Shown: positions 35,203-41,355 of the stretch, piece after piece
How the letters are laid out: the number at the start of each line of letters is the position of its first letter
Numbering within the stretch: position 1 is the stretch's first letter
DNA from: Hydrolagus colliei
Taxonomy: Eukaryota
Length of the DNA: 64,000 nucleotides
Assembly: GCA_035084275.1 (NCBI GenBank)
Contig: CM068742.1
Coordinates: 55,366,001-55,430,000, forward strand
Direction: 5' to 3'
The notes under the pieces: model-generated
What the model saw: the letters and a program-made list of their open reading frames with translations, nothing else
Databases searched by the model: none
Told to the model about the DNA's origin: nothing
Program-made: the position numbers and the translations under genes

Positions 35203-35385
35203 CTCAAAGAGAGCCGCAGCTGACTCATTGCCATACTGGTTGGAAATGATTTCGGATTGGTCGCTGTACCACTTGAGTCCACCAAGAAAGTTTTCTGTGT
35301 CCAAGTCATTTACATCAAGCTCAGAAAGATCAAGTTCTGGGAGATCTGAACACAGGGGCTGGTCTTCACCAACTAAAGCCGCACA
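35203..35385 (-). CDS. PPARGC1A: PGC-1alpha exon 2 (acidic activation domain): CAALVGEDQPLCSDLPELDLSELDVNDLDTENFLGGLKWYSDQSEIISNQYGNESAAALFE
   Basis: ttag|TGT ... GAG|gtaag; 183 nt, phase 0/0; translated by hand, not in the ORF track. Confidence 0.97.
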
Positions 35386-36379: not shown

Positions 36380-37538
36380 TTTTCATATCGATATGCCAAT
36401 ATAGACATTTTTTAAATATCGATATATCGAAAAACGATATATCGAGGTAAAAAATCGGGATGCGAGCACAATCAACTACAAGACCCAGAATGCTCATCTC
36501 TATACACAATGCACAGACCGAGGTGCAAAGCCGCCATCTTGTATTCATAGTCCTCGAATACAATATACAGATGTGCAAGGGGTGGGGGGAGAGAGACGGC
36601 TGTGGCTGGGGGGGGTGAGGGGGAGAGAGACGGCTGGGGGGAGGGGGAGATAGACGGCTGGGGGGGGAGAGGGGGAGAGAGACGGCTGGGGGGGGGAGAG
36701 GGGGAGAGAGACGGCTGGGGGGGGAGGAGAGGGGGAGAGACGGCTGGGGGGGAAGGAGAGCGACGGCTGGGGGGAGGGGGAGAGGGGGAGAGAGACGGCT
36801 GCGGGGGGGAAAGGGGGAGAGAGATGGCTGGGGGCGAAAGGGGGAGAGAGATGGCTGGGGGGGAGAGGGGGAGAGAAACGGCTGGGGGGGAGAGGGGGAG
36901 AGAGACGGCTGGGGGGGGGGAGGAGAGGGGGAGAGAGATGGCTGGGGGCAAGAGGGGGAGAGAGATGGCTGGGGGGGAAAGGGGGAGAGAGACGGCTGGG
37001 GGGGGGAGGAGAGCGGGAGAGACGGCTGGGGGGGGGAGAGAGACGGCTGGGGGGAGGGAGAGAGACGGCTGGGGGGAGGGGGAGAGAGACGGCTGGGGGG
37101 GGAGGGGGAGAGACACGGCGGGGGGGCGGGGGGGGAGGGAGAAAGAGACGGCTGGGGGGGTGGTGGGGGAGAGAGATGACGGGGGTGGGGGGTGCGAGAG
37201 AGGGACGGCGGGGGGGGGGGGGGGGAGTGACGGGGTGGATGTGATAATATACAGATAGATAGAGATGGGGGGGGATGTGAGAGAGGAGAGAGGAAGAGAG
37301 ACATAGAGAGACACAGACAGAAAAACACAGAGATGGAGAGAGTGAGAGACACAGAGAGAGAAAGATATTTACCTCCTGAGAAGATAGGCCCCGAATGCAC
37401 GCGCATCCGGAACACGCGCGCATCGGATGCGCGCGCATGCGCAGTACGGAAAAACTGAAAATGTCGATATTTTGGTATATCTCGATATGTGCCGACCGAT
37501 ATGGATATATCGGGAAATTCCCATATTGCCGTTCCCTA
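36380..37538. mobile_element. CpG-rich non-autonomous DNA-transposon-like insert with CGATAT subterminal repeats and an internal minisatellite
   Basis: Clusters of (AT)CGATAT at 36386-36445 and 37463-37512; right end ...gccgttCCCTA; CpG density far above the flanks. No matching left TIR was found. Confidence 0.45.
36586..37230 (+). repeat. G-rich minisatellite, ~22 units of GAGAGAGA(C/T)GGCTG(G)5-10AGAGGGG (21-33 bp)
   Basis: Direct reading; it produces the spurious Pro/Ser- and Gly/Glu/Arg-rich ORFs in all frames. Confidence 0.95.
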
Positions 37539-39727: not shown

Positions 39728-39875
39728 ACATACATACATACATGCATACATGTATGCATGCATACATGCACGCACGCATGCATACACGTATTCATGCATA
39801 CATGCATACATACATGCATACATACATGCATACATACATGCATACATACATGCATACACACATGCATACATATAT
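39728..39875. repeat. (TACA/TGCA)n compound microsatellite (catgcatacata units) running into the gap
   Basis: catacatgcatacatacatgcata... Confidence 0.95.
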
Positions 39876-40023
39876 NNNNNNNNNNNNNNNNNNNNNNNNN
39901 NNNNNNNNNNNNNNNNNNNNNNNNNNNNNNNNNNNNNNNNNNNNNNNNNNNNNNNNNNNNNNNNNNNNNNNNNNNNNNNNNNNNNNNNNNNNNNNNNNNN
40001 NNNNNNNNNNNNNNNNNNNNNNN
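39876..40023. other. Assembly gap (148 N) in intron 1
   Basis: Run of n. Confidence 1.
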
Positions 40024-40154
40024 CCAAGCATAACAAGTGTAAGACACTAAGTTGAAGGGTAGGCAAGTACAGTTTTAAGTAATATTCCCTCCTCAGTTAG
40101 AGATGATATTAATTTCTTCTTGCTGCAAACATCACTTGTAGTGTTCCAGCTCAC

Positions 40155-40202
40155 CTCTGTTTCACTCCACTCAAAGCCTTGGCTGCACCTGTCCCACGCC
40201 AT
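40155..40202 (-). CDS. PPARGC1A: PGC-1alpha coding exon 1 (1a): MAWDRCSQGFEWSETE
   Basis: ATG GCG TGG GAC AGG TGC ... ACA GAG|gtgagc; 48 nt, phase 0; resembles mammalian MAWDMC...WSDIE. Confidence 0.95.
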
Positions 40203-40315
40203 TCAGCTTCTGACTTAAAGCAAAAGCCACAATAAATCCACGCTCACACACAGCAGTCACACGTGTAGAGTGCTGGCCCCTCGCAGAGACTCAACTGAAG
40301 GCACCTGTCTTACTA
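40203..40315 (-). other. PPARGC1A: 5'UTR of exon 1a
   Basis: Begins TAGTAAGACAGGTGCCTTCAGTT (40315-40293), matching the recalled 5' end of mammalian PPARGC1A mRNA. The exact TSS is inferred. Confidence 0.75.
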
Positions 40316-40410
40316 CTACACTAATGCTACTGTTCAGCGTCACATGACAAGTTATTAAAAGTAGGCAGGGCTGTCAATCAGAGGCAGTGTTCCATGATAA
40401 AGCCAATGAT
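40316..40410 (-). promoter_or_regulatory. Proximal core promoter: E-box/CLEAR-like GTCATGTGAC (40339-40348), TATA-like TTTTAATAA (40352-40360), PBX/PREP-MEIS decamer TGATTGACAG (40371-40380), CCAAT (40403-40407)
   Basis: Motifs read directly. The block GACAGCCCTGCCTACTTTTAATAACTTGTCATGTGAC resembles the recalled mammalian proximal promoter. Confidence 0.8.
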
Positions 40411-41355
40411 GTATCAGGAAGGTGGAGCCAGAGCTAAGTACAGTAAATCTTTAAACTACTCAACCTTTGAATCTTCAGTCCCATGCTGTGATTAAATCCT
40501 GCTTTATGTGCCACACCTTTACGAGGCTACCTCCAGATAAAAGCATATCCTAAAGTGCTTGGTTGTTTCATTTTATCTTGAATGAAAAGATATATCTCCA
40601 CAGAACATTAGACGTGAAAGGCGACGTGAAAGGCGACGTGAAAGGCACTCTATAAATGTAATTTTGTTGTTGCTGTAGAAAGATCTTGTTCTCTCGCCCT
40701 CAATTGTTTTTATTGCTTTCGTAGAAATGCAACATCCTTATAGCATTTGCAAAGATTTAAGTTTTAACACCCCATCTGTCGTCATTTCTGCGTCGCTCTC
40801 TCGCATTTCAGCTTCGGAATTATAAGTCGCATTGTGCTGAACACGGGAAGGGTGATAGCAAAGTGCAAACATTCATCAAACCGAATAAACAAAAATCGTT
40901 TCGAATTTTCTGCCTCTTGGCTTGAGGAGACAAAACGTTTAGTCACTTAGAAATCAGCTAAGTCTGGATACAGCGAGAACCAGCAAAAAAAACAGCCACA
41001 CAGCTTACTGTGTTGATAGTAAAAACAATAAGGTGAACTATGCTGTCGTTCCGTTAAAATTGCTGTGGAATTCAAACATACACAAGCCTTTGATTTTAAT
41101 CAGTGTATGAAAGCAGTGTCAGTGATCTTACTTGAAGTATGGTCATGTGCAAGCAGTGTAGCTCAGTGCCCTGCGTCACACGGTGCTCGTGCTTGCAATC
41201 TACAATATGGATTACTGATCTCAGCTGTGTCGTCATGGTGAGAACAGCTAGTGCCAGGCTACTCTCCAGAGGGAGAGTCTGGAGAGGCGGCTCACACCTG
41301 CTGGTGCCAGCACAGCTACATACATCACTGGAGGAGGCCTGGGGCAAGTTGCAAC

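Follow-up and report, generated by a model that had tools for sequence, protein, structure and literature searches.

Does the PPARGC1A gene of a cartilaginous fish carry the uORF (upstream open reading frame) described in this gene from other animals? The uORF in the PPARGC1A 5' UTR represses translation of PGC1alpha (Dumesic et al, 2019, Cell Metab 30:190, as cited in the accessible parts of PMC7288267, PMC12396333, PMC6862278 and PMC8036390), and the available text of PMC7288267, a meeting abstract, reports it for orthologs ranging from human to fly, with multiple uORFs in those of fish and none in that of the Atlantic bluefin tuna. We analyzed a 64,000-nucleotide stretch of DNA (the window) for which an original prediction had proposed that the mammalian uORF start codon reads ACG. 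Among the article listings and openings of abstracts that we searched, we found no paper on a PPARGC1A uORF in sharks, rays or chimaeras, although Dumesic et al (2019) may already have included cartilaginous fishes.

The PPARGC1A locus and its first exons

The minus strand of the window carries PPARGC1A (PGC-1alpha), and the order of its exons in tblastn, together with the names of the best matches, confirms the gene assignment of the original prediction. The coding part of exon 1a (40155..40202, minus strand) comprises 16 codons (MAWDRC...) followed by a GT donor, and 14/16 are identical to P0001, a protein named as Callorhinchus milii; exon 2 (35203..35385, minus strand) matches the same protein at 61/61 residues (tblastn). 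The locus has the marks of the ortholog: a MAWD-type first exon spliced to a CAALVGE exon, an exon with the LKKLL motif, and best hits named PPARGC1A. Searching the genome returned 21 matches on three contigs, with a high-identity set on C1 and weaker, paralogous sets on C15 and C19, leaving one high-identity PPARGC1A locus.

The large exon at 5219-4269 (minus strand) has 906 protein matches at E <= 0.001. Among the best 120 of these, the top match is a protein named as C. milii at 92% identity, an alignment that spans exon 8; shark and ray proteins follow at 66-73%, versus about 44-52% for bony vertebrates. Because the matches fall in this order, the sequence identifies the organism as a holocephalan, and we refer to it below as the chimaera.

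The main ATG (40202) has T at -3 and G at +4, with an in-frame TGA directly 5' of it. An N-terminal extension from a near-cognate start is ruled out by in-frame stops at 40259, 40217 and 40205. For 4 of 11 queries, the results showed no alternative first exon within the window. On the minus strand at L002:1101-1017 (G000:C1), 201,398 bases upstream of the exon 1a ATG, there is a distal alternative first coding exon; it begins MAGCGLSEDLLFSS..., is of the MAGCGL type, is 79% identical to the N-terminus of the shark/ray protein P0011, and resembles bird and mammal isoforms. This exon has a strong start context and a GT donor, with a perfect TATA box at L002:1657 and one ATG (L002:1562) between the TATA box and the start. 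Transcripts from it would bypass the exon 1a leader altogether. Intron 1 contains a GC-rich, purine/pyrimidine-skewed tandem repeat that gives long low-complexity open frames (36500-37300), and a short-period TATG/CATG repeat (39750-40023) adjoining a run of 148 N bases (39876-40023).

The predicted leader and its ACG codon

ATG is absent from the minus strand between 40344 and 40203, immediately upstream of the main ATG. Within this interval an ACG at 40264-40262 lies 62 nt upstream of the main ATG and opens a frame of 6 sense codons that ends at an in-frame TGA (40246-40244; whole frame 40244..40264, minus strand). On both points, the missing ATG and the ACG with its early stop, our reading of the sequence agrees with the original prediction. 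Of the listed sequencing runs, 5/24 contain all 47 sampled words of 40060-40560; four of these runs are marked as a possible source of the assembly, and one (X5) comes from a different sample and study. An assembly error at the ACG is unlikely because five runs hold all of the words and because a distant relative, X19 (see below), has the same three bases. Among the listed runs, no RNA run contains these words.

We predict the start of transcription from promoter sequence. A TATA-like element (40352..40360, minus strand; 2 mismatches to TATAWAWR) would put +1 near 40328-40331, and it sits about 31 nt before the pyrimidine-purine step that opens the most conserved block of the leader. The predicted leader therefore spans 40203..40328 (minus strand), its 5' end being taken from the TATA spacing. 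We consider it likely that transcription starts downstream of 40345, the A of the nearest upstream ATG; provided that it does, the leader would contain no AUG and hence no canonical uORF.

The absence of ATG from a stretch of this length is by itself unremarkable, since 57/564 window tiles of 113 nt and 35/505 tiles of 126 nt also lack one, as do 33% (113 nt) and 18% (126 nt) of 5000 dinucleotide shuffles, and since uAUGs are generally depleted (in 473/478 eukaryotes, according to the accessible part of PMC7889888). It would become notable if the position were homologous to that of the mammalian uAUG: the ACG at 40264-40262 presumably corresponds to the mammalian uORF start, a match proposed through the human sequence given in the original prediction. 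Our search of article listings and openings of abstracts found no mammalian PPARGC1A leader sequence; the available parts of PMC13018091, PMC11801751 and bioRxiv 2023.01.06.522985 add nothing on its position, and N-terminally extended database proteins yielded no usable leader sequence.

With T at both -3 and +4, the ACG lacks a purine at -3 as well as a G at +4 and stands in a poor initiation context. The predicted fold of 40328-40180 reaches -45.4 kcal/mol (z +0.62), and 146/200 shuffles do as well. We judge the ACG a poor start from its context, and the fold to be no better than that of shuffled sequence. Because the leader has no uAUG, a poor ACG context and no stable fold, ribosomes would likely scan to the main AUG without a brake.

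The ACG and its CpG lie in a CACGTG palindrome (40260..40265), the E-box consensus and one of 2 such hexamers in the window. The original prediction overlooked this CpG, at which, judging by the sequences, a change on the opposite strand gave one relative an ATG. A CpG transition on one strand creates an ATG at 40264, and a transition on the other strand creates one at 40262; ACG to ATG and CGTG to CATG are both described as ways in which uAUGs arise, and in the human lineage CpG was the origin of about 33% of the newly fixed uORFs (Zhang et al, 2021, accessible part of PMC7889888).

Two further elements lie upstream. A palindrome-like E-box/M-box with a CATGTG core (40348-40339), situated between the TATA-like element and the predicted +1, contains the ATG at 40345 and is unchanged in X19. 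Upstream of the promoter, at 40646-40611, a 12-nt unit with a CACGT core occurs in three tandem copies; the surrounding region (40560-41300) has a CpG observed/expected ratio of 0.80, against 0.33 for the window.

The ACG site in elasmobranch-type relatives

We compared 4 of the 24 listed runs with the chimaera over 40060-40560 at 80% likeness. The contig from organism D (X11) reaches only 40388-40538, outside the ACG site, leaving three relatives that cover it, none of them a second chimaera: organisms E (X14), F (X19) and G (X21), each represented by one contig over 40147-40519 with 38 other letters in about 370 (~89-90% alike). In all three, codon 2 is changed to Glu, giving an MEWD start; this start occurs in 7/120 listed proteins, all named as sharks or rays. 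E, F and G are thus of elasmobranch type by this sequence mark, and comparison across the site spans roughly 400 million years of divergence. Assigned from the counts of each kind of change, the individual differences listed comprise 33/33 for X19, 33/35 for X21, 26/36 for X14 and 0/1 for X11 (40 of 53 rows in all).

Organism F has kept the site. It shows no difference from the chimaera at 40264-40260 or at 40246-40244, so that ACG, CACGTG and TGA are all present, and a reading by hand finds no leader ATG arising from any of its 33 differences. The whole ACG..TGA frame carries 1 difference in 21 nt in F, against 4 substitutions and 3 inserted bases in G, while the most conserved block of the leader (40293..40328, minus strand) carries 1 difference in 36 nt in each of the two. 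Because ACG and TGA recur in an elasmobranch-type relative that likewise lacks an upstream ATG, we find it very probable, on these alignments, that the ACG predates the split between holocephalans and elasmobranchs. The original prediction had offered independent loss in the chimaera lineage as one of two readings, and F speaks against it. The suggestion that translation is de-repressed in this lineage would accordingly concern an old state, and not an event like that in tuna.

Organism G has an ATG. At position 40262 the G of the CpG reads A and 3 bases are inserted beside it, giving CACATG on the minus strand; the resulting ATG, two bases downstream from the position of the ACG, opens a frame of 13 sense codons that ends at a TAA 12 nt before the main ATG (by hand). 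This is the pattern of a CpG-derived uAUG, with CGTG in the window and X19, CATG in G and an open frame, as read from one contig at depth 12. The other 2/35 differences of G, one A>T and one G>C, probably lie beyond 40286, judging by the ascending order of the four listed X21-only rows.

In organism E, TAA replaces TGA at the stop of the frame, and the change of G at 40262 is absent. Ten of its 36 differences fall outside the listing, and two of these are G>A, either of which could fall at 40263; an ATG at 40264 in E would correspond to 2/54 candidate positions, roughly 4%, a share that a tenfold weight on CpG sites raises to about 30% at most. Across the three relatives, then, start and stop are both kept in F, the stop persists as TAA in E, and both are changed in G. 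E and G share substitutions at 40245, 40338 and 40366 and a net 6-nt loss at 40220-40229, none of which occurs in F or the window. Since E shares these other changes of G but not the change at 40262, G's ATG is most simply read as a derived, later gain.

The window has 5 CpGs in 40178-40488. Only that of the ACG is also a CpG in F (it is the one changed in G), and at the other four none of E, F and G has a CpG. The retention of this sole CpG in F fits constraint, whether on a DNA E-box or through avoidance of AUG, in a sample of five; CpG gains in the chimaera line are also plausible from the same alignments. At 40410 (by hand), the contigs of E, F and G all show T>C on the plus strand, so that their minus strand reads CGTCA, a half-CRE, in place of the chimaera's CATCA; this sequence difference may possibly reflect loss of a cAMP-response half-site in the chimaera by CpG decay.

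Possible histories of the AUG-free leader

The reading that we prefer, at about even probability, is that the AUG-free leader with its ACG is the old cartilaginous-fish state and that upstream AUGs were gained later by CpG mutation. Under this reading, transcription would start near 40328, scanning ribosomes would meet only poor near-cognate codons, and they would reach the main AUG free of the uORF brake that mammals and teleosts are known to have, with no meaningful translation of the ACG frame. The AUG of organism G would be a derived gain by CGTG to CATG, and the other transition at this CpG, ACG to ATG, would have produced the bony-vertebrate uAUG, provided that the human alignment of the original prediction is right. 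That the ACG is ancestral to all jawed vertebrates we favor by a little. Both the direction of change on the stems and the register with the mammalian uAUG are putative, the leaders compared being those of the chimaera and the three elasmobranch-type relatives.

The main rival has the uAUG in the jawed-vertebrate ancestor and lets the cartilaginous-fish stem lose it once (ATG to ACG, with the stop added), after which G regained an AUG; there would be no brake in the chimaera on this account either, and we regard it as rather unlikely. It needs a T to C change that creates a CpG, and such changes run against the usual mutation bias of vertebrates. CpG status changes freely in this leader, however, and CpG gains appear to occur in that of the chimaera, so mutation bias is a weak argument about polarity, and a single change on either stem fits the data equally. 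Stem loss also draws on general observations, namely that uORF repression is reported for orthologs from human to fly (PMC7288267, accessible part) and that selection generally removes uAUGs (PMC7889888, accessible part), although conservation from human to fly need not be positional.

Less probable still is an account in which transcription starts further upstream and ATGs upstream of the predicted +1 supply the brake. The nearest of these is a start-stop, an ATG followed at once by TGA (40340..40345, minus strand), between the TATA-like element and the predicted +1. The other two would be uORFs only if transcription starts further upstream: a 5-codon frame at 40378..40395 and a 16-codon frame at 40434..40484 (both minus strand), whose ATGs at 40395 and 40484 have strong contexts (A at -3, G at +4). 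All three ATGs are without a listed change in X19, further TATA-like sites with 2 mismatches exist at 40541, 40510 and 40455, and teleosts carry multiple uORFs (PMC7288267, accessible part). Against this, the frame at 40395 is not kept, a stop cutting its 5 codons to 2 in X14, X19 and X21 (rows 40387 and 40389), and the spacing of the TATA-like element at 40360-40352 to the head of the conserved block argues for the downstream start.

Weak action of a near-cognate uORF, which the original prediction had raised for the 6-codon ACG frame, seems improbable. That frame does exist, with start and stop kept in F and the stop kept in E; its context is of the weakest class, the leader has no stable structure, G has changed both start and stop, and the site may be held as a DNA E-box instead. 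From its context, a GTG at 40241 appears to be the better near-cognate candidate, though a candidate only: it has A at -3 and G at +4 and opens 8 codons (40215..40241, minus strand) to a TAA at 40217-40215 that also closes the ATG frame of organism G. Apart from position -1, the GTG and its context are free of listed changes in X19 and X21, and the closing TAA is likewise kept in both. A chimaera-specific, tuna-like loss or an assembly error, for which the window's own lack of an ATG is the only argument, is very improbable, given that the matching runs come from two samples and that the same ACG and TGA in F contradict it unless F changed in parallel.

Returning to an old AUG-free leader, we tentatively extend it to a possible double origin, in which one CpG gave rise to the PGC-1alpha uORF brake at least twice among jawed vertebrates, by ACG to ATG in bony vertebrates and by CGTG to CATG in one shark/ray line, while the ancestral AUG-free leader persisted in chimaeras and some elasmobranchs. 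The chimaera gene resembles that of the described inhibitory uORF in being the same gene with the same reference first exon and an ACG 62 nt upstream of the main ATG, and organism G has a 13-codon AUG frame that ends before the main AUG; it differs in that neither the chimaera nor F has an AUG, and hence a canonical uORF, as known here from sequence. Our comparison follows one site over those roughly 400 million years. By contrast, the CpG-derived uAUGs surveyed elsewhere are genome-wide, recent primate changes (accessible part of PMC7889888), with which G's CGTG to CATG, at a place where ACG to ATG is also possible, agrees in kind.

Chimaeras are not known to be endothermic or to be high-performance swimmers. 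Their leader is like that of bluefin tuna PPARGC1A in being a vertebrate leader without an upstream AUG. The tuna differs in that it reportedly stands apart from the other teleosts, which have multiple uORFs, and its state is linked to high mitochondrial content and cited as a likely adaptation (in the accessible text of the sources), whereas the chimaera state is old and common to two deep cartilaginous-fish branches. The matter concerns one regulatory codon in a well-known gene and carries moderate weight. If cartilaginous fishes lack the uORF as an old state, tuna are not alone in lacking it, and the vertebrate uORF may have arisen later than assumed, or more than once. This would put a date on a metabolic control element, and a small testable system would be formed by related leaders that differ at one CpG, some having an AUG and others not. 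If the double origin is true, an AUG-free leader would not by itself be a mark of high oxidative capacity, and cartilaginous fishes would offer natural comparisons of leaders with and without the AUG.
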